A stretch of 9,872 nt of DNA. It comes from a virus (lineage: Duplodnaviria; Heunggongvirae; Uroviricota; Caudoviricetes). This document shows, one piece after another, positions 1 through 9,872 of this stretch (its first letter is position 1; each line of letters opens with the position of its first letter). The position numbers and the translations under genes were made by a program. The stretch lies in IMG/VR virus record IMGVR_UViG_2663763428_000004. One strand, given 5' to 3'. The notes under the pieces were generated by a model. It saw nothing but the letters and a program-made list of their open reading frames with translations. It searched no databases and had not been told where the DNA came from.

Positions 1-157
1 TAATCGTGTCCTCTGTGGTGGGTGTGGTGAATGTTATGTGTGGTTTGTGAGTAGTGTCCTGTGCATAGTCAGGTGTGTGTTTATGTAGAACTTAGGCGAC
101 CACCGAGATCTACACATTTATATTCGGCGGCAGCGTCAGATGTGTAGAAGAGAGTAG
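1..157. other. Non-biological library-adapter read-through at contig end (Illumina P5 sequence, 8-nt index-like spacer, degenerate Nextera read-1 / Tn5 mosaic-end sequence)
   Basis: 95-115 ggcgaccaccgagatctacac exactly matches the 3' part of the P5 adapter. 116-123 is an 8-nt index-like spacer. 124-157 tcggcggcagcgtcagatgtgtagaagagagtag matches TCGTCGGCAGCGTCAGATGTGTATAAGAGACAG apart from a few substitutions to G. 1-94 is GT-rich junk typical of reading past the adapter. Confidence 0.8.
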
Positions 158-693
158 GTAATACCCAAATCCTTGCATCTTTTCGATATTTCCTCATCGA
201 AGAAATACATTACTGTATTTGAAATAATGGGAGAAGAAGGTGCTCCAACACTTAGGCGTAACGGGCTATTTCTTCTTAACTTCCAGAAGAAAAGATTTTT
301 AAGAACAAAGATATCAGTATCAGTTAGTTCAACGCCATAATCTTTTAAGACAGATAAAAGATTATGGGGTTTGATACTCATAAAAAAGTTTTTAAAATCC
401 ATTTTAAGCAAATAATCATTATTACAATGCATTAACGCATTAGATCTAATACTTTTATCGGCTTCATAAGCGAAAGCATTTTCATGAACTTTCAAATTAG
501 CCAACATATGATTGATTACTACCTTCTGTAAGGCTTTAACTTGCCTAGCTGGTTGTGCAATTAATCTATATCCATTACCATTTCTTTTGGCGATAGGATA
601 AATTTTATATCTGCGTGGAATAGTAACAATATACCTTTTAGCCTCTTCTTCGCTAAGAAAAAGACCTTTTGAAATATAACTTAGCAACTCCAT
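158..693 (-). CDS. Retron-type reverse transcriptase, 3'-truncated fragment (N-terminal part through motif B; contig ends just before the expected YxDD box)
   Basis: ORF-track entry 136..708. Retron-RT blocks read directly: YIVTIPRRYKIYPIAKRNGNGYRLIAQPARQVKALQ (compare Ec86 RIYTVEKKG..RTIYQPSRELKALQ), motif A LKMDFKNFF, motif B LSVGAPSSPIISN. Preferred start is the ATG at 693-691, preceded by GGAGG; the track start at 708 is a GTG. The last ~7 codons and the stop at 136-157 are adapter-derived. Confidence 0.85.
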
Positions 694-694
694 T

Positions 695-1681
695 CTAAGC
701 CCCTCCACGCACGATATTGATTTGATTTAGAGCATTTTTCCTTTTTTTTGCAGTCTCGTCCATATCTTTAGCATCCATACTTAAGTAAGATTGTCGGATT
801 GCAACCTTAATATTCATAGAATCCTTTATTTTACCACTAGCACTGATACCAAATTTAAGTTTACTCTCTCTATGCCCTCGGGAATAGAAGTAGTCTGTAC
901 CACTGTAAGATAATGATGAGGTTAATTTCATCTTTTCAAGCAAATAAAGTAAACGAGTTATTATTTTTTGTGGCACATCTATATCCATACAGTATAGTGC
1001 CCACTCTATTTCGCTTTTCTTGATTGGTTCTGATAAAAGGATTATTTCGTAAATCAATATAGCTAGGTGCCCAGTATTTTCAGGGTTATATCGCTCCGTT
1101 TTTTTTACACGTTTTAATCTAGAATGAATATCATGGTAGATAAGCTCAACCTCATCATATTTCATACGATCCGATTTTGGCCATGGATAAACTGATACTG
1201 AGGCCTCATCTATTTTTTTAAGATACTCCAAAGGGCCTAAATATATAAAAGAAGATCTAGCAGGAATATTTTTTCGTTCATTTCCCTCAATCTCCTCAAA
1301 TGGTGCGACTACATGCAATTTTTGAGCTAGAGACTTCCTATTAACAAATAATCCAAGCTCAACTAACGAACCTGCACTTTCTAAACAGATAACAACTAAT
1401 GTTGAAATATTTGCAATATCATCTTCAAAGCTCATTAGATCTGAATATGCCCCCTCTCTGAAGTAGTCATGGAAGTTCTCAGCTAAAATAAGAGAATCTG
1501 ACAATTCAGGTTTGTGGCCTGCTACATAAGTAAATATGTGGTCTCGTACACTCATTGGAGTGGAATTTATCGGCCCACCACAAACAAAAATAATAGGAGG
1601 CATGAACTGAACAGTGAAATTTGAATATTTCAAATCTCCAAACTGCTCTTGTAATGCATTCATATATGCAGAATCACTCAC
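695..1681 (-). CDS. Retron effector candidate with nucleoside 2-deoxyribosyltransferase-like (NDT-like) N-terminal domain, RcaT/Ec86-effector-like
   Basis: 328-aa ORF immediately upstream of the RT on the same strand (stop TAG 697-695, RT ATG 693). N-terminal IIFVCGGP followed by ESAGSLVELG, which resembles the NDT catalytic-glutamate motif (compare DVGLGMELGY). AT-rich like the RT. Start is uncertain: GTG at 1681 per the track, or ATG at 1663. Confidence 0.7.
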   Translation of the reverse strand: MSDSAYMNALQEQFGDLKYSNFTVQFMPPIIFVCGGPINSTPMSVRDHIFTYVAGHKPELSDSLILAENFHDYFREGAYSDLMSFEDDIANISTLVVICLESAGSLVELGLFVNRKSLAQKLHVVAPFEEIEGNERKNIPARSSFIYLGPLEYLKKIDEASVSVYPWPKSDRMKYDEVELIYHDIHSRLKRVKKTERYNPENTGHLAILIYEIILLSEPIKKSEIEWALYCMDIDVPQKIITRLLYLLEKMKLTSSLSYSGTDYFYSRGHRESKLKFGISASGKIKDSMNIKVAIRQSYLSMDAKDMDETAKKRKNALNQINIVRGGA

Positions 1682-1689
1682 CCTTGTGA

Positions 1690-1905
1690 CCCCCTACTCC
1701 AAAAGAAAAGGTGGCTAACCAGCCACCTTCGACCCCTTTACCTAAAGGATGCGCTTTAGACTTTCAGCAAGATCCTGAATGGAACGCAGTGGCATGAAGG
1801 ATCTTGCTGAAAGTGCTAAAGCGCAACCCTAAATGTCCACAATAAATTAGTGTCTGGCGAAACGCCCGACAAGGATAAACCTGTTATCCCGCGCGTAAAG
1901 GTAGG
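1690..1905 (-). ncRNA. Candidate retron msr-msd non-coding RNA (structure-based guess; boundaries approximate)
   Basis: Non-coding stretch directly upstream of the effector and RT. Interrupted 26-bp hairpin at 1751-1824 (perfect 16-bp core 1761-1776 / 1798-1813, 21-nt loop). Further hairpins at 1708-1729, 1857-1867 and around 1872-1888. Possible minus-strand promoter: -35 TTGAAA (plus 1931-1936), -10 TATCCT (plus 1909-1914). No a1/a2 repeat pair or branching G identified. Confidence 0.35.
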
Positions 1906-2261
1906 GTTAGGATAGCAAAAGATGCGAGATTTTCAATAAGTAAGCGTACTGGCTGCCAGCAACCACCTAAACCATTGACATTTAAACAAAAATAAATCTA
2001 ACAATTGAAAGCAATACCTTATTGAATACAGCATTCTTATATCTCTCTTGATATCGCAACATCACAATTATCACCGTTAGTGCGGGCAGCCCCGCACGCC
2101 TGCCCGCTTCGCTTAACAGACTGGTTTTCATGCACCTCATTAATCGTCTCAGAAGCCAGCACACAAGGGTTTTCTCGTCAAAAATGGTGCATAAGACTCA
2201 TGCGTTTTCATGCGCCATAGACATGCACTCATGCGCTCTCATGTCAGCCAGGAAAAGGGGG

Positions 2262-2290
2262 TAAAAAATCCCGGTACTGGACCGGGATTA
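2262..2290 (-). terminator. Rho-independent terminator ending the sid-psu-ogr operon
   Basis: Stem tcccggt (2269-2275) / accggga (2281-2287), 5-nt loop, A-run 2263-2268 on plus strand giving a U6 tract after the stem on the minus strand; about 20 nt downstream of the ogr stop. Confidence 0.6.
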
Positions 2291-2308
2291 CGTGGGCGTT
2301 CTTTCTAA

Positions 2309-2581
2309 TCAGACAGGAATCTGCTGACGGCTTGACAGTTTTGACGCGGAGCCATAGCGATTGAGCGTTTTCTGTTGTTTTTCCGGGGATTGTGCTTTGT
2401 CTGATAGCTGTTCATTGCGCCGGGGTTTCATGATTATCTTATCCACACTCTCCAGTGCCGTAAATGTGCAGGAACATTCCAGATTCTGGCACTGATACCA
2501 CGAGCGTTTAACTGACGGAGCTTCATAGGCTGCTGTTCTGGCGTGTGCAACTGTACCGCATTCCGGACATTTAAGTGCCAT
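2309..2581 (-). CDS. ogr: Ogr/Delta-family zinc-finger late-gene transcriptional activator (single Ogr-like domain)
   Basis: MALKCPECGTVAHARTAAYEAPSVKRSWYQCQNLECSCTFTALESV matches the P2 Ogr C-x2-C...C-x4-C block (compare HCPLCQHAAHARTSRY..RYHQCQNVNCSATF as I recall it). Preferred start is ATG 2581-2579 with AGGAG 8 nt upstream; the track start at 2590 is a GTG. Confidence 0.85.
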   Translation of the reverse strand: MALKCPECGTVAHARTAAYEAPSVKRSWYQCQNLECSCTFTALESVDKIIMKPRRNEQLSDKAQSPEKQQKTLNRYGSASKLSSRQQIPV

Positions 2582-2586
2582 TAATA

Positions 2587-3138
2587 TCACTCCTGTATAT
2601 CGTTAATGTCATTCAGGCGTTGCTGAAAACGCAGATGTTGTGCCGGGGTGTAAGAACCCTGGCAATCACGAATCATCCCGGGGTCAGGCATCAAACCGGA
2701 TTCATCCAGGATCTCACGATAATCCCCGGCAATTTCAGGCGGTGTTATTGCCAGCTGGCGAACCAGAGCACTGCGTAATATACGGGACGCAACGTCAACC
2801 CCTCCGCGCCCCTTCAGGAACGGAGCCAGTGCAGATGTCAGGGCTGCCCCATTCGCCTGCATAAAATTGCTGAGAGCGGCTTCTGTGCAGGCCTCCATCA
2901 GTAAATGCTGCGAGTAAATGCATTCGCGCGCAGCACAGTTAATTTGCCATTTCAGCACATCCAGACGTTCCCGCAGTAATTCGAGCTGTCGGGCATAATC
3001 TGCTGGTTTTTCTGTGGCAGCGAGGAGAGATGTTATCTGTTGTTCAACGGCTTTTCGGCTCTCATTATGTCCGGCCCACAGAATACGGGCATTCCGAAAA
3101 CTGGTAAGTGCCTGGTCAGGCGTGCCTCGGGCCGTCAT
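2587..3138 (-). CDS. psu: Psu-like polarity suppression protein (Rho antagonist / capsid decoration protein of P4-type satellites)
   Basis: 183 aa. Blocks KWQINCAARECIYSQ, FMQANGAALTSALAPFL and YTPAQ resemble P4 Psu as I recall it. AGGAG upstream of ATG 3138; ATGA overlap with the preceding gene. Confidence 0.7.
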   Translation of the reverse strand: MTARGTPDQALTSFRNARILWAGHNESRKAVEQQITSLLAATEKPADYARQLELLRERLDVLKWQINCAARECIYSQHLLMEACTEAALSNFMQANGAALTSALAPFLKGRGGVDVASRILRSALVRQLAITPPEIAGDYREILDESGLMPDPGMIRDCQGSYTPAQHLRFQQRLNDINDIQE

Positions 3139-3878
3139 ACTGCTTTCTCCTTCTCAGCAAGTTCCTGACGAACCTTAATTTTATGCATAGCTGCCGGAGA
3201 GAGTTGATTACTGAAATCCAGACGCGCCGCATAATCCGGGGCAACTCCCGCCAGTTTAAACACCGGGTCCTGCTCAGGCATCGCATCGTTAGCCAGAGCC
3301 GGTCTGGTGATATGTTTATGAATAAAGTCTTTCAGCACTGTGTCCGGGTCATTAACTGAATTCACCACACCCACAACGGCACTGGCTTCCCGGCCCATTG
3401 TGGATTTAAGCAGGCTCAGCGTCTGAATAAGCGCTTTTCCATGCGACTGCATAAAATCCTCCCAGATTTGTTTTGCGCGAATATCCACAAGAATGTTATG
3501 CGCGTGGATATACTTTCCGGCTAATTCTGCAGCTTTCTGCGGCAAAAGTGCATTTTCGCTTTCCTGAGCCGCCAGCAGCTCATCAAAATCCTCAAGCGTT
3601 TCTCGTCCCAGCGCAATTTCCGTGCGCAGTTTTTTCATTTCCTTTGAGACCACGCCCTGACTTTCACGAAACAGCGTGCGCCACTCCTCATTCAGTGTGT
3701 TCGTCGTGGCTTCCATTTCAGCGCGACGCTGGCGGATTGTCGCAATATTATCCGCTGCCGCTTTCTGCTGACGACGTGCTTCAAGCCATGCGTTTCTGGC
3801 TGTGTTCATGGTTTCCAGTGCCCGCTGCGTTACAGCCGGAAAAGTGGAAAGGTTGTTATTCACTGCGGTGTTGTTCAT
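3135..3878 (-). CDS. sid: Sid-like capsid size-determination (external scaffold) protein, Sid/Psu family
   Basis: 247 aa, first gene after the iteron region, AGGAG before ATG 3878, translationally coupled to psu. Predicted helical and charged-residue rich. WRTLFRESQGVVSKE and FMQSHGKALIQTL resemble Sid/Psu-family blocks. Assignment rests mainly on synteny with psu and ogr. Confidence 0.55.
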   Translation of the reverse strand: MNNTAVNNNLSTFPAVTQRALETMNTARNAWLEARRQQKAAADNIATIRQRRAEMEATTNTLNEEWRTLFRESQGVVSKEMKKLRTEIALGRETLEDFDELLAAQESENALLPQKAAELAGKYIHAHNILVDIRAKQIWEDFMQSHGKALIQTLSLLKSTMGREASAVVGVVNSVNDPDTVLKDFIHKHITRPALANDAMPEQDPVFKLAGVAPDYAARLDFSNQLSPAAMHKIKVRQELAEKEKAV

Positions 3879-3912
3879 GACTTCTCCTGTCGGGTTGGTT
3901 CGTTACGTCAAT

Positions 3913-3968
3913 TGTGTCGTGGCTGACACAAGCACACTATCGGTGCTCAGTGTGTGGTGGCTGGCACA
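3913..3968 (-). promoter_or_regulatory. Two TGT-N12-ACA dyads (candidate Ogr/Delta-dependent late promoter upstream of sid)
   Basis: tgtgtcgtggctgacaca at 3913-3930 and tgtgtggtggctggcaca at 3951-3968, each TGT-N12-ACA; the distal one is centred about 81 nt upstream of the sid ATG. Confidence 0.45.
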
Positions 3969-4054
3969 ACGGACGCTTGCGGTTATTCAGACGTGGCTAT
4001 GAAAGCCAGCCAGATAAAAATGCCCTCTGTTTCAGTCTGCTTTATGTCCCTGAT

Positions 4055-4252
4055 GCGGTGGAACAGGTGAAACATGTGTTACAGCTTTGTTTTATAAGGC
4101 ATTTATATACACTGCACCGGTGGAACATCGCGGGTAACAAGGTGGAACAGCGGATTGGCTGGCGTTACATCTGTTCCACCTCACTATTTCAGAAGGTGGA
4201 ACAGGTTCAGCCCTGTAAAATACGGTTGTTCCACCTGTTTCACCTGTTACCC
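4055..4252. repeat. Iteron cluster (candidate crr/ori-like replication element bound by the adjacent primase)
   Basis: GGTGGAACAG/T at 4057-4066, 4119-4128, 4141-4150, 4195-4204; inverted (C/T)TGTTCCACC at 4171-4180 and 4226-4235; variants GTGAAACA 4067-4074, TGTTTCACC 4236-4244, GGGTAACA/TGTTACCC 4132-4139 and 4245-4252. Lies in the non-coding gap just after the primase stop. Confidence 0.6.
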
Positions 4253-4278
4253 TTAATAAATAAGACTCACGCAAAGCC

Positions 4279-6951
4279 TTAACCCGGCACCTCGCTGTTG
4301 AAGACATAGAGCCTGCGGGGATTCATCTCTGGCGGGCGAATGGTTGTCTGGAGTTTGCCATCAGTGGAGGGCAGCAGGTATCCACGATCTGCGCACAGAC
4401 GCGCCACCTTGCGCGGGTCAAATCCCCTGCAGATTTCTTTCCAGCCGGACGGCATGACATAGAACGTAGTGACAGCTTCCGTGCCCTGCGCGGTACTGCC
4501 TTTCTCCACCCTGCGCCAGCCCACCATATTGCCGGGGCGGTTGCGCTCGTCATACCAGTCTGCAAAGCGGCTGTACTGATTCGCGGTAAAGAAACTGCGA
4601 ACCTGCTCCAGTGCGGCGATATCTTCCTGATTGGCGGTGTGCCCGCGATCTTTCAGCCATGCGTTCAGGCAGACGCGGGTTGCCCGCAGTGCTTCACCCT
4701 CAGGCCAGCCGGTGATACCCAGACGGGTTGCCAGTTCACCTGCCATCGCCACCAGAGCAAAGCGGTTCACAGCCCGGCCCACCTGATTGCCTGCATCTTT
4801 CGGAGTCAGGGCGGCAGCATATTCCTTCATCAGCGATTTTGCCTGTGCCGTTAGTCCGTTAAGATCAGCGGTCAGTGCTTTCAGCCACTCCCGGAACGGC
4901 GAACCGTAGTAGCAGGACGTGGCCCATTCAAGATGCTCTGCCAGAGCCTTGCCGCTGTCGAAGCCGTGCAGCTCCTCAAAAACGCCAAACTTCCCGGAAT
5001 CGCTGGGGATCTGGATCATCCTGACTTCCATCCCGGCAAAAGTACGCTCACCGGCCTTTGCCGCATGTTCGGTCAGAGACAACTCGCCAGTTGAAAAGAA
5101 CAACAGGCGCCAATGCTTACGGGTACGCAGCTCACCGTCCGTACCGGCACGGCCCTTGCCCTGACCGTTTGCCAGCATGTAGGCGATATTGCCTGCCTCG
5201 CGTCCGTCAACTTCCCGGATCTCATCAAGCATCATGGCGGCATCGTTGCGGCGGCTGGCGCATCCCTCCAGCGCGTTGCCGGTGGCCCGCCATGTCTGCC
5301 AGTAGTCAGGCCCGCCGCAGACGGAGGTTGCCGCTTTCATGGTGGTGGTCTTACCGTCTGTCGATTCCCCTTTGAGGTGGTAGCCGCCGCCGTCCATACC
5401 AACCAGCCGTAACAGTGGTGCAGCAAAGGCCAGGCTGACAGCAAATGCCACGCGGGAGTTGCCGGTACAGTAGCGGGATACATGCTCCCGCCATTCCTCT
5501 GTTGTGCCCGACACGCGGAAATCACGCCCCTGCACGGAAGTGGTCTGGAGAATGACACCCTCTGCACCTTCACCGCTGACCTCATCCTGCAGGACGTAAA
5601 CCTGACCATGCCAGCCAGTACGACTGACGCAGGTCACGCGGCGTTCCGGTTTACACAGTGAGATATATTCCATCAGGCGTGCGCGTGCCTCACCGGTGGT
5701 GCTGATATAAGACAGCCCGTTAACCAGCAATACCCGGCGCAGTTCCTCACCACTGCCGCTCAGCATTTCCATCGGCATCGCCCAGCGGCGACACTCACCC
5801 CACGTATCTTCCCATTCCAGCAGTCGTCCGAAGTTACCGCCATCGGCATCGCAGGTGATTGCCGTCACGCGCAGCGGGCTGCATATTTTGACGTTCTGGA
5901 TCTCCGTCTCACCGTTGCGCTGTACCTGCTTTTCATACCAGAGATATTCCTGGGTAAGACGGAACCCGTGCGGCAGTTGCGTGCGGCCCTCCCCGCACAG
6001 CACCAGACCGTTACGAAAGGCTTCACGGGCGCGGGTAATACCGTGCTCCCGATGGAAGTCATTCCAGTCGGCCTTAATCTCTCCCGGTGGCAGCGTCATC
6101 CAGCCGCCAACAGCTTTTGCCGCCCGTTCAGCAAAGGCTCTGCCGGGATTCTCACCCCCGTCCTGAAAATCGTTATCACCGGCGATGATAATTTTTACCT
6201 CAGGCCAGCGTGCCCGCAGCGACTGCGCCACATTGGGCAGGTTGCCCGCAGATATGGCAGCCACTACGCATCCGGCAGTGAGCTGACTTACCGTCAGCGC
6301 CGTAGCGTAACCTTCGGTAATCACCACCTGTACCGGTGGTTCAGACGGTAACGGGCTGAGCGACACAAACGCGCCTTTCATCGTGCTGCCGGGCAGTATG
6401 CTTTTTTCACCCGTCGGGGCGATAAGCTGTGCACCAGTCACGGCTCCGGTGTTGGTCGTGAGTGGTAACAGCAGGGAACCGGCAGGAAAATCCTTACCGC
6501 TGATATGCTGCACGCTTCCGGTCAGAGAGGCCGGGTATCCGGCGAACCCTTTTCCTGTCAGATAGGCGCTTTCTCCCGTGTGGCTCTCTTTCATCAGCGC
6601 CGCCACGGTAAGACCCATGTCGCGTTTAGGGGCTTTTTTTCTGGCAGGCTTAACAGGCAGTTCCTGCACATCCGGCACATTAAGCACCTGCGCCACCTCC
6701 TGCGCAGCCTTTCTGACGCTGTAACCGGTTACGAGCTTAACCAGATCCAGACCGTCACCATTGCCACACTGGCTGCAGATCCACGTCCCGCGCCCGTCAA
6801 GGTCATCAAGGCGAAAACGATCCTTGCCCCCACATTTCGGGCAGGGACCGTGCCTGCCGTTTTCAGGTACATCAATACGCAGCATCTGGAGAATAACGGG
6901 CCATTTCCCCCGTGCGGCGGCTGAAATCTGCGTAACCGTCTGTATTGTCAT
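4279..6951 (-). CDS. Satellite primase-helicase, P4 alpha-like (N-terminal zinc ribbon, TOPRIM, C-terminal P-loop NTPase)
   Basis: 890 aa. CPKCGG..(x19)..CSQCG zinc ribbon (coded about 6766-6843); TOPRIM-like VVITEGYATA...IIIAGDND; Walker A GESTDGKTT. ATG 6951 with GGGGGA upstream; ATGA overlap with the upstream gene. Confidence 0.9.
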   Translation of the reverse strand: MTIQTVTQISAAARGKWPVILQMLRIDVPENGRHGPCPKCGGKDRFRLDDLDGRGTWICSQCGNGDGLDLVKLVTGYSVRKAAQEVAQVLNVPDVQELPVKPARKKAPKRDMGLTVAALMKESHTGESAYLTGKGFAGYPASLTGSVQHISGKDFPAGSLLLPLTTNTGAVTGAQLIAPTGEKSILPGSTMKGAFVSLSPLPSEPPVQVVITEGYATALTVSQLTAGCVVAAISAGNLPNVAQSLRARWPEVKIIIAGDNDFQDGGENPGRAFAERAAKAVGGWMTLPPGEIKADWNDFHREHGITRAREAFRNGLVLCGEGRTQLPHGFRLTQEYLWYEKQVQRNGETEIQNVKICSPLRVTAITCDADGGNFGRLLEWEDTWGECRRWAMPMEMLSGSGEELRRVLLVNGLSYISTTGEARARLMEYISLCKPERRVTCVSRTGWHGQVYVLQDEVSGEGAEGVILQTTSVQGRDFRVSGTTEEWREHVSRYCTGNSRVAFAVSLAFAAPLLRLVGMDGGGYHLKGESTDGKTTTMKAATSVCGGPDYWQTWRATGNALEGCASRRNDAAMMLDEIREVDGREAGNIAYMLANGQGKGRAGTDGELRTRKHWRLLFFSTGELSLTEHAAKAGERTFAGMEVRMIQIPSDSGKFGVFEELHGFDSGKALAEHLEWATSCYYGSPFREWLKALTADLNGLTAQAKSLMKEYAAALTPKDAGNQVGRAVNRFALVAMAGELATRLGITGWPEGEALRATRVCLNAWLKDRGHTANQEDIAALEQVRSFFTANQYSRFADWYDERNRPGNMVGWRRVEKGSTAQGTEAVTTFYVMPSGWKEICRGFDPRKVARLCADRGYLLPSTDGKLQTTIRPPEMNPRRLYVFNSEVPG

Positions 6952-7331
6952 ACTTCCCCCTGATACAACGTCACACCGGTACTGCAGAAGTCATCAAAGG
7001 CCGCCGGAAGCGTGCGGTACATCTCCGCCATCACTTCACAGCCGCGCGCGGTCAGTACCGGCGGCGCGGTCAGCAGTGACGGCTCCAGCATGTCAGTCAG
7101 CAGTGCCAGCGCGGCAGCGGCGCCCTGTGCTTCGCCGTACTCGTTAATCAGTACGCACTCGATATGCAGCGCAATGGCCATTTCAATACGCTCCACCGTC
7201 AGGCTGTGCGGACCATACTGATCACTGCCAGTTTCGTTCAGCATTTTCTGCCGCCATGCTGAAGCAATAGCCCGCCGGTAAAGCGCGGTGGTCATTTCTG
7301 CCGGGAAAATGGAAACCTGCGGCTGGTTCAT
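6948..7331 (-). CDS. Hypothetical protein (127 aa), translationally coupled upstream of the primase
   Basis: ATG at 7331; ATGA overlaps at both ends; GC content like the satellite core. No motif recognised. Confidence 0.6.
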   Translation of the reverse strand: MNQPQVSIFPAEMTTALYRRAIASAWRQKMLNETGSDQYGPHSLTVERIEMAIALHIECVLINEYGEAQGAAAALALLTDMLEPSLLTAPPVLTARGCEVMAEMYRTLPAAFDDFCSTGVTLYQGEV

Positions 7332-7612
7332 CTGGCACCTCCTTCAATCAGTGCGCAGCTGTGTGCAATATCCGTCAAATCTGCCAGCAGGTACTCCATC
7401 AGCGCGGCGACACCATGCGCACAGCCAGCGTCCAGTGCTCCGGCCTGAGACGGGTATTCAGAAAAGAGAAGCTGGAGCATGTCGCAGGCATTTCTTGCGC
7501 GGGTCAGTTTTCCGAAACTGTCCTCTGACAACCCATAGGCAAAAGCACCGGTATTGTGTTTTTCAGGCAAAGTGTGGCCCTGAGCACCGTTGTGCCCGTT
7601 TGAAATATTCAT
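7328..7612 (-). CDS. Hypothetical protein (94 aa)
   Basis: ATG 7612 with GGAG upstream; ATGA overlap with the next gene. No motif recognised. Its position is analogous to the small regulators upstream of alpha in P4, but that is positional only. Confidence 0.5.
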   Translation of the reverse strand: MNISNGHNGAQGHTLPEKHNTGAFAYGLSEDSFGKLTRARNACDMLQLLFSEYPSQAGALDAGCAHGVAALMEYLLADLTDIAHSCALIEGGAR

Positions 7613-7643
7613 CGTGGATTACTCCGTTTTCAGCGGTATTTTG

Positions 7644-8003
7644 TCAGAGAAACTTTGAATAGTGACCGTCGTCAGGCTCAGCAGAACGCCGTATGCTACG
7701 CTCCCGCCAGCGGATAAATAGCACAGACGGATGCAGTGTCAGCGGGCCGGAACCACTACCGCCAGCAGGAGCTGGTGCAGGCTTCAAGAGCGGTACATCA
7801 AACAGGCGCGTATACCGCTGTTCAAACCATGCCAGAGGGCAGGAAGAAAGCTGGTTGTCGCTGTCATGACGTATCAGCACTTCACAGCTGAATTCAGGAT
7901 TAACCAGCGCCACAGAGGGCGAGGCTTCTATTAATCGGATAATCGTGACCGTCCAGCCACGTTCATGCTGCCAGCGTTCGCCGGGGTGCGGATAATTACG
8001 CAT
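7644..8003 (-). CDS. Hypothetical protein (~119 aa)
   Basis: Track ORF 7644..8033 begins at a TTG; I prefer the ATG at 8003-8001, which is preceded by GGAGGTG. No motif recognised. Confidence 0.5.
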   Translation of the reverse strand: MRNYPHPGERWQHERGWTVTIIRLIEASPSVALVNPEFSCEVLIRHDSDNQLSSCPLAWFEQRYTRLFDVPLLKPAPAPAGGSGSGPLTLHPSVLFIRWRERSIRRSAEPDDGHYSKFL

Positions 8004-8172
8004 GTTCACCTCCGCAGGGAATGCGCCCGGCAAAGCTCAGTACATAGTCCGGGGCAAGTCTGCGCCGCGCTGACCGCTCGTTATCTGCGGTGATCCTTAA
8101 CATCACAGGACGGGCATTGCGTTGACTGCGGTTGATCGCCGCAAATAACCAGGTACACTTCTGTTTAGCCAT
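7996..8172 (-). CDS. Small basic hypothetical protein (58 aa), first gene of the leftward operon
   Basis: ATG at 8172-8170 preceded by GAGG; this is the 3' part of track ORF 7996..8730, whose upstream portion crosses the promoter and operator region and is not credible as coding. Confidence 0.35.
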   Translation of the reverse strand: MAKQKCTWLFAAINRSQRNARPVMLRITADNERSARRRLAPDYVLSFAGRIPCGGEHA

Positions 8173-8247
8173 CTTCGTTACCTCATTTAGCGGATTGGTC
8201 AGAAGCCCGGTTAGTGTTGCTGCACTGTCGGGCTTCGCACTCACAAG

Positions 8248-8340
8248 GTGAATCGCACCTTTAATTTTAAAGCTACCCTTAAGTGAATCGCACTTCAAGC
8301 TTTTTATTATCATTTTTTTTGCATATACTGAATCGCACCT
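8248..8340. promoter_or_regulatory. Three direct repeats (G/C)TGAATCGCAC(C/T)T in the divergent control region, with a candidate plus-strand promoter
   Basis: Repeats at 8248-8260, 8283-8295 and 8328-8340; -10-like TATACT at 8324-8329 abuts the third repeat; weak -35 TTTTTA at 8301-8306. Confidence 0.45.
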
Positions 8341-8359
8341 AACGCGAGGAGATCCAGTA

Positions 8360-8545
8360 ATGGCAACGAGTTCAACTAACAACAAGTCGCAGCAACTTAA
8401 TGCTCGTTTCCCACATGATGTAGTTGCAGAATTAGAAAGCAACCTTGAAGATGGAGAAACGAAAGCGCAATTCATTGTTACGGCTGTAAAAGGCGAGATT
8501 AAACGCCGACAGCGCAGGAAAAATAAGCCAGAGCAAGGTAGTTGA
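8360..8545 (+). CDS. Small ribbon-helix-helix (CopG/Arc-like) DNA-binding protein, candidate repressor
   Basis: 61 aa; GAGGAG 8 nt before the ATG; N-terminal ARFPHDVVAELESNL...AQFIVTAVKGEI fits the RHH strand-helix-helix pattern; basic C-terminal tail. No toxin partner downstream. Confidence 0.55.
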   Translation: MATSSTNNKSQQLNARFPHDVVAELESNLEDGETKAQFIVTAVKGEIKRRQRRKNKPEQGS

Positions 8546-8608
8546 ATAGAGAAGCCAACAGACGTTCTCTCTGTTTCCATGTTAATTTCAGTAAGCGACA
8601 ATATTTTT

Positions 8609-8642
8609 AAGCCCACAAATTCATTATGTCGGGCTTTTTTAT
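8609..8642 (+). terminator. Intrinsic terminator after the RHH gene
   Basis: Stem 8609-8617 / 8627-8636 with one bulge, 9-nt loop, then T6; sits between the convergent RHH and alpA genes. Confidence 0.5.
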
Positions 8643-8872
8643 TAGTGATTTTCATATCGCTCACCACGAGAGGCATATATTTGCTCTTGAATCCAGTGAT
8701 CCACTTCGCTTTCAACAAATGAAATTGCACGAGTTCCTATTTTCACCGGACGGGGAAATGTATTGTTTGCAAGCTGTTTGTAAAGCCATGCCTTGCTACG
8801 CTGAACGCGTCTTAAGACCTCTTTTGCTGAGATAAGAGTCTGATTATCTGAAAAGCTGTTTGCATATTCCAT
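8642..8872 (-). CDS. alpA: AlpA/Vis-family phage transcriptional regulator / excisionase-like protein
   Basis: LISAKEVLRRVQRSKAWLYKQLANNTFPRPVKIGTRAISFVESEVDHWI matches the AlpA helix-turn-helix pattern. Preferred start is ATG 8872 with GGAG upstream; the track start at 8917 is a GTG. Confidence 0.8.
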   Translation of the reverse strand: MEYANSFSDNQTLISAKEVLRRVQRSKAWLYKQLANNTFPRPVKIGTRAISFVESEVDHWIQEQIYASRGERYENH

Positions 8873-9248
8873 CTTGTTACTCCGTGTTCTACTTAAGTTC
8901 ACGGTGACTTTAAACACTGGGAAAAAGTGATTCTAGTGATAATGGAATCTATTAAGACAAATATTGATTCTATTGAAAAACAATAATCTCCACTGAAAAA
9001 AGAAGTAATATTCATATGAAAGAACACGGAGAGAAGGAAATGCACAAAAAAAACAAAATCAATAGAATTCATATGGATAGGATGGAAAATCAAAAAATCA
9101 TATGTCAAAAGGTATTATTGCATTTTAACGATTCATATTACCTAGGAATTAGCACAGTATTACACCATATTACATCGTATTACCCCCTATAGCCCGTTAG
9201 AGCCTCTTGTGGCCCTTCTATTGAGAGATAGCCAGAAAATTAATAAAT

Positions 9249-9851
9249 TTACTCTCCGTATTTTATAATGTCTTTCCCAAGCTTTATTTTCTTATAAAAC
9301 GTAGCTTTTTTAACCCCTTTCATTAGAATCTCATTCTCATTACAAAAAGAAACAATATCATTATATATAACACTATTATCGCTATAACTTACCTTTCCAT
9401 GTCTCTTAAGCAATTCAATTAGTAAATAAATTAATTTACAACTATAATTATCCTCATCATCTTTTCTGTACTGCCCTCTACCATTACTCCTTAATTTTTT
9501 ACCAACTTCATATAATTCACTTCCTCCTAACGTCATTAGAATATCACTCCAATCTTTATTTTTTACCTGTTGTCGTAATGCGTTCTCAATTCTCTCCTTA
9601 ATCTCCACAGGTACAATACCTTCCCTCTGAAAGATATAAGCGGCAGTTAATAATAAGTTCGCCTCCACTTTTTGCGTGGCGGATACGTTTTTATATTCAT
9701 TAATTAATTGTAGATTTCTGGTTATTGCCTTTCTTAATCTAATAACCTCTTTTAATTGAACCTCAGTCAATTCATCATTTTCGGTATCATAGTCAAAACC
9801 ATTCATAGCAAGCGCCACTTCGTGTGGCGTTATGTAAGTTACCCTATTAAA
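9249..9851 (-). CDS. AT-rich hypothetical protein, probably 5'-truncated by the contig end
   Basis: Track ORF 9249..9818 starts at a GTG. Neither that GTG nor the first ATG (9806) has a Shine-Dalgarno sequence, and the frame stays open up to the adapter at 9854. No recognisable motif. Confidence 0.55.
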   Translation of the reverse strand, partial: FNRVTYITPHEVALAMNGFDYDTENDELTEVQLKEVIRLRKAITRNLQLINEYKNVSATQKVEANLLLTAAYIFQREGIVPVEIKERIENALRQQVKNKDWSDILMTLGGSELYEVGKKLRSNGRGQYRKDDEDNYSCKLIYLLIELLKRHGKVSYSDNSVIYNDIVSFCNENEILMKGVKKATFYKKIKLGKDIIKYGE

Positions 9852-9853
9852 AT

Positions 9854-9872
9854 CTGTCTCTTATCAACATCT
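9854..9872. other. Non-biological Nextera mosaic-end remnant at contig end
   Basis: ctgtctcttatcaacatct matches CTGTCTCTTATACACATCT at 17 of 19 positions. Confidence 0.75.

Follow-up and report, generated by a model that had tools for sequence, protein, structure and literature searches.

An Escherichia coli P4-type satellite with a DUF927 primase-helicase and a co-directional late operon, a likely backbone lineage apart from P4

The window analysed here, a stretch of 9,872 nucleotides from the IMG/VR virus record IMGVR_UViG_2663763428_000004, likely holds most of an intact 11.86-kb P4-type satellite that is inserted at a tRNA-Leu gene and belongs to a backbone lineage other than that of P4. 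Judged from its sequence, the element is a complete and probably functional P4-type satellite from Escherichia coli, representing a distinct, widespread and under-described lineage; the satellite function is predicted from homology and conservation. The lineage is defined by its backbone, i.e., a DUF927 primase-helicase, a single iteron cluster, an integrase directly upstream of alpA and a late operon downstream of alpha. Listing of the open reading frames (ORFs) and family scans placed consecutively, and all on the minus strand, the gene of the primase-helicase as alpha counterpart (4279..6951, 890 amino acids (aa)), a cluster of iterons as putative replication origin (4057..4244), sid (3135..3878, 247 aa), psu (2587..3138, 183 aa) and a one-domain Ogr/Delta gene, delta (2309..2581, or to 2590 with a GTG start, 90 aa), a co-directional series that the first-pass annotation had described correctly. 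Sid was assigned as the external scaffold setting the capsid size (phrog_6165, 8.7e-93), Psu as capsid decoration protein and Rho inhibitor (Pfam Psu, PF07455, 1e-44) and Delta as zinc-finger late activator (Pfam Ogr_Delta, PF04606, 1e-15, one stretch). Over the whole element the order is the integrase gene int, orf189, alpA, an icd-like ORF, two further ORFs, a DUF5375 gene, the primase-helicase gene, the iterons, a Psid-like promoter, sid, psu, delta, a probable terminator, a cos-like site, a hotspot with a retron and attR, with a single direction throughout from int to the retron.

No match was obtained by megablast of the complete window to the phage collection, nor by blastn to P4 DNA, therefore the comparison to P4 was made at the protein level. 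In the P4 genome (NC_001609), alpha occupies 4636-6969 of the minus strand and has crr immediately 3' of it, and ori comes after vis; sid (244 aa), delta (166 aa) and psu (190 aa) lie in that order on the plus strand from 9583 to 11460. The position of delta between sid and psu in the P4 operon has been reported (PMC7552001). Two statements of the first-pass annotation were thus borne out by the map: alpha and the sid-delta-psu operon of P4 are divergent, and P4 Delta is a tandem double Ogr-like protein with two Ogr_Delta stretches against one in the window. Its suggestion of a distinct lineage holds for the backbone, but not on the grounds of psu preceding ogr or of the one-domain Delta, as both are seen also in elements of canonical layout. 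The co-directional order as such differs from P4 and is absent in P4 and in the satellites with P4-type alpha, while the exchange of psu and delta is ordinary: psu precedes a 90-aa delta also in the canonical-layout elements L003 (E. coli O157:H7) and L007, and the swap occurs in 20 % of P4-like elements according to Moura de Sousa and Rocha (PMC8628076). Common to P4 and the element are Sid, Psu, Ogr/Delta, AlpA/Vis, the DUF5375 protein (orf106), the Icd-like ORFs, a P4-family tyrosine integrase at tRNA-Leu and the size (about 11.9 kb versus 11.6 kb for P4), furthermore the series of iterons, two TGT-N12-ACA dyads at -93/-55 and sid, and a cos-like site after the late operon beside a variable hotspot. 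The element differs in a late operon that is co-directional with and downstream of alpha, whereas that of P4 is divergent from vis; in the order sid-psu-delta with a one-domain Delta instead of sid-delta-psu with a two-domain Delta; in an integrase gene upstream of alpA, which in P4 lies beyond alpha; and in having neither a detected epsilon homologue nor a PLL-type dyad. The window Sid falls into the same PHROG as P4 Sid (phrog_6165) at 24 % identity, and has 91 % identity to Sid of O157:H7; for Psu the values are 30 % and 88 %.

The actual departure from P4 lies in the backbone, including the primase-helicase. By blastp, similarity between the window alpha and P4 alpha was confined to residues 5-316, the N-terminal primase part, at 38 % identity. 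Pfam identified the domains Zn_Ribbon_Prim, Toprim_3 and DUF927 (phrog_1139, 1e-183), without Pox_D5 or D5_N, whereas the alpha proteins of P4 and O157:H7 comprise D5_N, DUF5906 and Pox_D5. The DUF927 part matched the PDB entries 8tch, 'Pathogenicity island protein' (8e-15), and 5dgk, 'Active helicase' (2e-13). By its domains, the protein is the predicted functional counterpart of P4 alpha with a helicase part from a different family. The origin differs as well. The 9-mer TGTTYCACC is present in eight exact copies, in both orientations around an AT-rich stretch, confined to 4057-4244 within the 400-bp spacer between alpha and sid; eight copies were reached in none of 200 shuffles, with a mean expectation of 0.13. 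No further copies were present elsewhere in the 27.7-kb locus, hence the element has a single cluster; the same pattern recurred in seven related loci (L008-L010, L012, L025, L027 and, as judged by sequence alignment, L058). P4 has ori and crr with the 8-mer TGTTCACC; this octamer was rejected as iteron of the window, where it occurs once, at chance level. By homology with P4, the DUF927 primase-helicase would start replication at the iterons just 3' of its own gene.

Iterons of either orientation are found at two sites in P4, ori upstream of sid and crr downstream of alpha, and recombination between them would put sid co-directionally after alpha. The window could hence be a P4 architecture of the same lineage, flipped by one inversion. 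We regard this as very improbable: after such an event one would expect P4-type alpha, two clusters of iterons and an integrase gene turned around next to alpA, but the helicase part belongs to another Pfam family, a single cluster with a 9-mer in place of the 8-mer unit is present, the integrase gene is co-directional with alpA, and the flipped layout was found in no element with P4-type alpha that was examined. In about 45 loci showing both genes, DUF927-type alpha was always co-directional and P4-type alpha always divergent. A genome scan with alpha returned 39 loci, among them 15 with an alpha at least 73 % identical, from Pseudocitrobacter, Pantoea, Citrobacter, Enterobacter, Yersinia and Shigella. 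All 15 had the order from int to alpha with a co-directional delta downstream, in 11 cases together with sid and in four with other partners; their late cassettes were sid-psu-delta, sid-delta, sid-delta with a second Sid paralogue, or delta with a Sid paralogue. In Xenorhabdus, Proteus, Morganella and E. coli ST131, which have more distant alpha genes, the region downstream of alpha held a small Ogr-like gene and a hotspot. Viral contigs scanned with Sid yielded 29 loci, 22 with DUF927-alpha in co-directional and seven with P4-type alpha in divergent layout, without exception. The upstream integrase position was occupied by at least four integrase types. Out of 5426 complete E. coli genomes, 325 had the alpha-iteron-sid junction at a coverage of at least 80 %; at least six further genera have it too. 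An alpha with 98 % identity to that of E. coli was observed in L009, L010, L012, L027 and L008 (Pantoea stewartii, Citrobacter, Enterobacter, Pseudocitrobacter), and this identity across genera indicates recent intergeneric transfer.

Many E. coli chromosomes are 99.99 % identical to positions 152-9853 of the window, and the boundaries were located in one of them. The integrase gene lies outside the window, at 18766-20028 of locus L002 (NZ_CP028578.2), upstream of orf189 and beside the tRNA-Leu gene in the same direction (phrog_1, 3e-51). The tRNA-Leu 3' end TCCGGCCTTCGGCACCA recurs just once in the 27.7-kb locus, as TCCGGCCTTCGCACCA with a single-base deletion, just past the reverse transcriptase (RT) gene of the retron. 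These attachment (att) site copies, at 20193-20209 and 8354-8369 of L002, are the sole copies of the tRNA-Leu 3' end in the locus, hence the element measures 11,856 bp. The co-directional order could also have arisen from two juxtaposed islands, an int-alpA-primase island at tRNA-Leu in tandem with a canonical P4-like remnant comprising sid, psu, delta, cos and the hotspot. Tandem islands do occur at this site, given the degenerate second integrase gene after attR in L002, and surveys have noted the ambiguity of elements flanked by two integrases (PMC10085698). Nevertheless, this explanation is largely refuted and we give it hardly any weight. The search of the 27.7-kb locus detected no att core copy between alpha and sid, the sole repeat being beyond the retron; the alpha-iteron-Psid-sid junction is kept in more than 35 loci of several genera with at least four integrases; the total of 11.86 kb matches the 11.6 kb of P4; and the sole origin is situated exactly at the supposed junction. 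Beyond attR, outside the window, positions 7017-8155 of L002 carry the frameshifted second tyrosine integrase gene, followed by insertion sequence fragments and a group II intron, which looks like a tandem degraded neighbouring island at the same tRNA-Leu site.

The late operon of the satellite carries its own control signals. Two TGT-N12-ACA dyads with a spacing of 38 bp, the first letters of which lie at -93 and -55 relative to the start codon of sid, form a Psid-like late promoter control region (3913..3968, minus strand). The same positions are occupied in P4 (-93/-55) and nearly the same in the canonical elements (-90/-52 and -92/-54), and the dyad pair is kept in every co-directional locus with an alpha at least 73 % identical. 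Julien and Calendar (1995) reportedly mapped the footprints of Delta on Psid to -55 and -18, in agreement with the 38-bp spacing. At the sequence level, sid has a predicted Ogr/Delta-type promoter of its own. Ogr-dependent late promoters of P2 have the consensus TGT-N12-ACA (PMC3931495). The iterons span -369 to -190 upstream of sid in the window and -276 to -180 at the P4 ori. Iterons, Psid and sid are thus a unit common to the window and P4, and only the gene across the origin differs: the far side is the 3' end of alpha in the window and the divergent vis/PLL region in P4. The Ogr of a P2-like helper together with the satellite's own Delta would bind both dyads and thereby activate sid-psu-delta as a late operon of its own, independent of alpha transcription despite the common direction. 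Sid and Psu would then reshape helper capsids to a size fitting about 12 kb, and the helper terminase would cleave the DNA at the cos-like site 3' of delta. A hairpin with an adjoining T-run (TCCCGGT-ccagt-ACCGGGA, then TTTTTT; 2263..2288, minus strand), read directly from the sequence 3' of delta, is the probable intrinsic terminator of the operon; the consensus scan for promoters and terminators was at background level and did not list this hairpin. Downstream follows a P4/P2-type cos-like site (2080..2108, minus strand), AGCGGGCA/GGCGTGCGGGGCTGCCCGCAC with the slash at the junction, assigned by its likeness to the P4 cos junction AAGCGGGCG/GGCGAGGCGGGGAAAGCAC; the two are similar, and the 19-nt cohesive end is not identical. 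The cos-like block is kept in both layouts and similarity stops directly after it, at 2074, at the border of the hotspot, which matches the cos-adjacent defence hotspot published for P4-like elements (PMC9122126).

Published surveys place such an element differently. They detect alpha by PF03288 (Pox_D5) and epsilon by PF10554 (PMC8628076, PMC10085698), and the described core order of P4-like elements is int - psu/delta - sid - alpA - epsilon - alpha with a late operon divergent from alpA (PMC8628076). Out of the seven core components of that study, the integrase, Psu, Sid, Delta and AlpA are present, while epsilon and a Pox_D5-type alpha were not detected; the order int - alpA - ... - alpha - sid - psu - delta on one strand does not match the canonical one. 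By the published profiles, the element would score as 'Type C#var01', without epsilon and alpha, which is the commonest Type C variant (PMC8628076, PMC10085698). Type C sets were left out of the gene-order analysis and called possibly decaying or long diverged (PMC8628076, PMC10085698), and a hotspot study of 2026 covered Types A and B only. Unlike the Type C sets as described, the window has another primase-helicase and its own origin in a conserved layout. In the papers searched, no link between DUF927 primases and P4-like satellites was found; the one mention of DUF927 together with satellites was unrelated.

Another reading, put forward in the literature for part of the Type C sets, is a decaying or domesticated P4-like remnant that has lost alpha and epsilon and is kept by the host only for its defence cargo. 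The profiles of the surveys indeed find neither alpha (PF03288) nor epsilon, a retron is carried and no gene for helper derepression was recognised. We consider a remnant unlikely, as all ORFs are intact, the full-length primase-helicase is accompanied by matching iterons, the Psid dyads, the probable terminator and the cos-like site are conserved, and near-identical copies in different genera and integration sites argue for ongoing mobility. Several observations nevertheless weigh against an intact P4-type satellite of a separate, widespread lineage. The consensus scan detected no intrinsic terminator between alpha and sid, thus read-through from the alpha operon is possible. A PLL-type dyad was present neither upstream of alpA nor upstream of int. 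A homologue of epsilon, responsible for helper derepression, was not found by Pfam, PHROG or blastp; P4 epsilon belongs to phrog_10016, the window ORFs at that position to other PHROGs. The cohesive-end sequence departs from that of P4 at several positions, and many of the 325 E. coli genomes with the junction are near-identical and may be clonal.

The late genes occur in both architectures. The sid-psu-delta-cos block of the window (2074-3791) has 92 % DNA identity to the canonical-layout element L003 of O157:H7. Sliding identity of the window to co-directional elements without psu was 88-100 % from alpha through most of sid, to the canonical O157:H7 element 83-100 % from about 3791 onward, with none upstream. 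The breakpoints of recombination are sharp, at about 3791, about 29 codons into sid, and at 2074, a few bases past the cos-like site. Neighbour-joining of the Sid sequences gave a tree with the clade of divergent layout nested among co-directional clades. The interleaved tree and the shared block together indicate that the hijack cassette recombines between architectures; the Psid-to-cos segment would have been exchanged by recombination between the DUF927 backbone and canonical P4-type backbones. Canonical swapped elements such as L003 share the sid-psu-delta(90 aa)-cos cassette at 92 % DNA and 88-91 % protein identity, but differ from the window in a P4-type alpha (73 % identical to that of P4) and in the order int, hotspot and reversed delta, psu and sid, divergent from the series alpA through alpha. 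A second Sid-family paralogue (270-303 aa; phrog_6165, about 1e-19) was observed after delta in L008 (6194-7105), L026 (14666-15478), L027, L029, L011 and L028; in some co-directional elements it occupies the place of Psu.

The backbone itself resembles phage-inducible chromosomal islands (PICI), those of Gram-negative bacteria included, and the Staphylococcus aureus pathogenicity islands (SaPI): int, alpA and the replicase gene are co-directional, the origin lies just downstream of the replicase gene, and the DUF927 helicase part matches the 8tch and 5dgk chains. In contrast to these islands, the window has sid, psu, delta, a P2-type cos-like site, DUF5375 and Icd-like ORFs, and no PICI genes for packaging redirection or capsid morphogenesis were among its Pfam and PHROG hits. 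We tentatively propose, as a possibility somewhat short of probable, that the P4 hijack cassette, consisting of the Psid dyads, sid, an optional psu, delta and cos, is a portable module captured by a PICI-like backbone of int, alpA, DUF927 replicase and origin, and that cassette and backbone together make up a second family of P2-dependent satellites that has been overlooked. Under present detection rules, its members would then be classed as 'P4-like lacking alpha and epsilon' or escape notice. Other hijack solutions appear to be in use among relatives of the DUF927 backbone, namely delta alone, two Sid paralogues, or an own P2-family major capsid gene in ST131. The latter case is L005 (NZ_CP051615.1, about 6600-17000), located at tRNA-Arg in E. 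coli ST131, where a DUF927 alpha is followed by Ogr/Delta, a hotspot with sce7725/7726 and int, without sid or psu; upstream lie a gene for a P2-family major head protein (phrog_70, 2e-86) and a 286-aa ORF without assigned function. This element may be a satellite bringing its own capsid protein. The 3' end of the L005-type DUF927 alpha, at about 71 % identity, was among roughly 790 E. coli records in the band of 60-80 %.

Censuses of P4-like satellites and of their defence hotspots rely on the Pox_D5 profile and on near-complete marker sets, hence the DUF927 lineage would be scored as defective or left out. The lineage is present in about 6 % of the complete E. coli genomes and in several other genera. 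Recognition of the lineage would correct the counts of functional satellites and of their defence systems, and would show a separate evolution of the replication and hijack modules in P4-type satellites. The lineage also offers a natural test of whether a P4-type satellite can do without two features of P4, the divergent PLL/Psid control region and crr, the second replication site.

The genes preceding alpha form a long operon on the minus strand. The ORF listing gave orf189 at 9249-9818. The first conserved gene of the operon codes for an AlpA/Vis-like regulator (8642..8917; Pfam Phage_AlpA, PF05930, 1.6e-11) with 26 % identity to P4 Vis (blastp); the Prokaryotic Genome Annotation Pipeline (PGAP) sets its start at 8872. 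A small Icd-like ORF of 58 aa (7996..8172, minus strand), assigned by PGAP, phrog_1743 (2.5e-16) and phrog_6928 (1.7e-14), matches the C-terminal part of the P4 'cI' ORF family. Two conserved ORFs without assigned function (7328..8003, minus strand; phrog_30862 and phrog_14861), of 119 aa (or 129 aa) and 94 aa, hold the position of P4 epsilon and orf151; the Pfam scan and blastp against the P4 proteins were empty for both. The next gene (6948..7331, minus strand) encodes a DUF5375 protein (8e-14), a homologue of P4 orf106 with 40 % identity, and overlaps the start of alpha. The only gene on the plus strand of the window is a 61-aa ORF of the YlcI/YnfO family (8360-8545; phrog_949, 2e-23) between alpA and the Icd-like ORF; a role in an immunity or regulatory switch is conceivable.

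At the other end of the window, the cos-like site appears to mark the border of the variable defence hotspot, the cargo of which is a predicted retron system of the St85/Sen2 type (152..1975, minus strand; PGAP names, RVT_1 4.5e-16). Its parts are an msr/msd-like structured region at about 1700-1975 (fold z-score -5.7), an effector gene (695-1681, 328 aa) and an RT gene truncated by the read end. The Rfam gathering scan of the window was empty: a P4 CI/C4-like RNA was not found, nor was a retron msr. The window ends, 1-151 and 9854-9872, resemble sequencing adapter and have no match to E. coli genomes, thus the RT ORF (136-708) was cut artificially. The left end reads ...GCGACCACCGAGATCTACAC...GGCAGCGTCAGATGTGTA.AAGAGA and is Illumina P5/Nextera-like, the right end CTGTCTCTTAT.ACATCT corresponds to the Nextera mosaic end; the window has the appearance of one long fragment produced by tagmentation.

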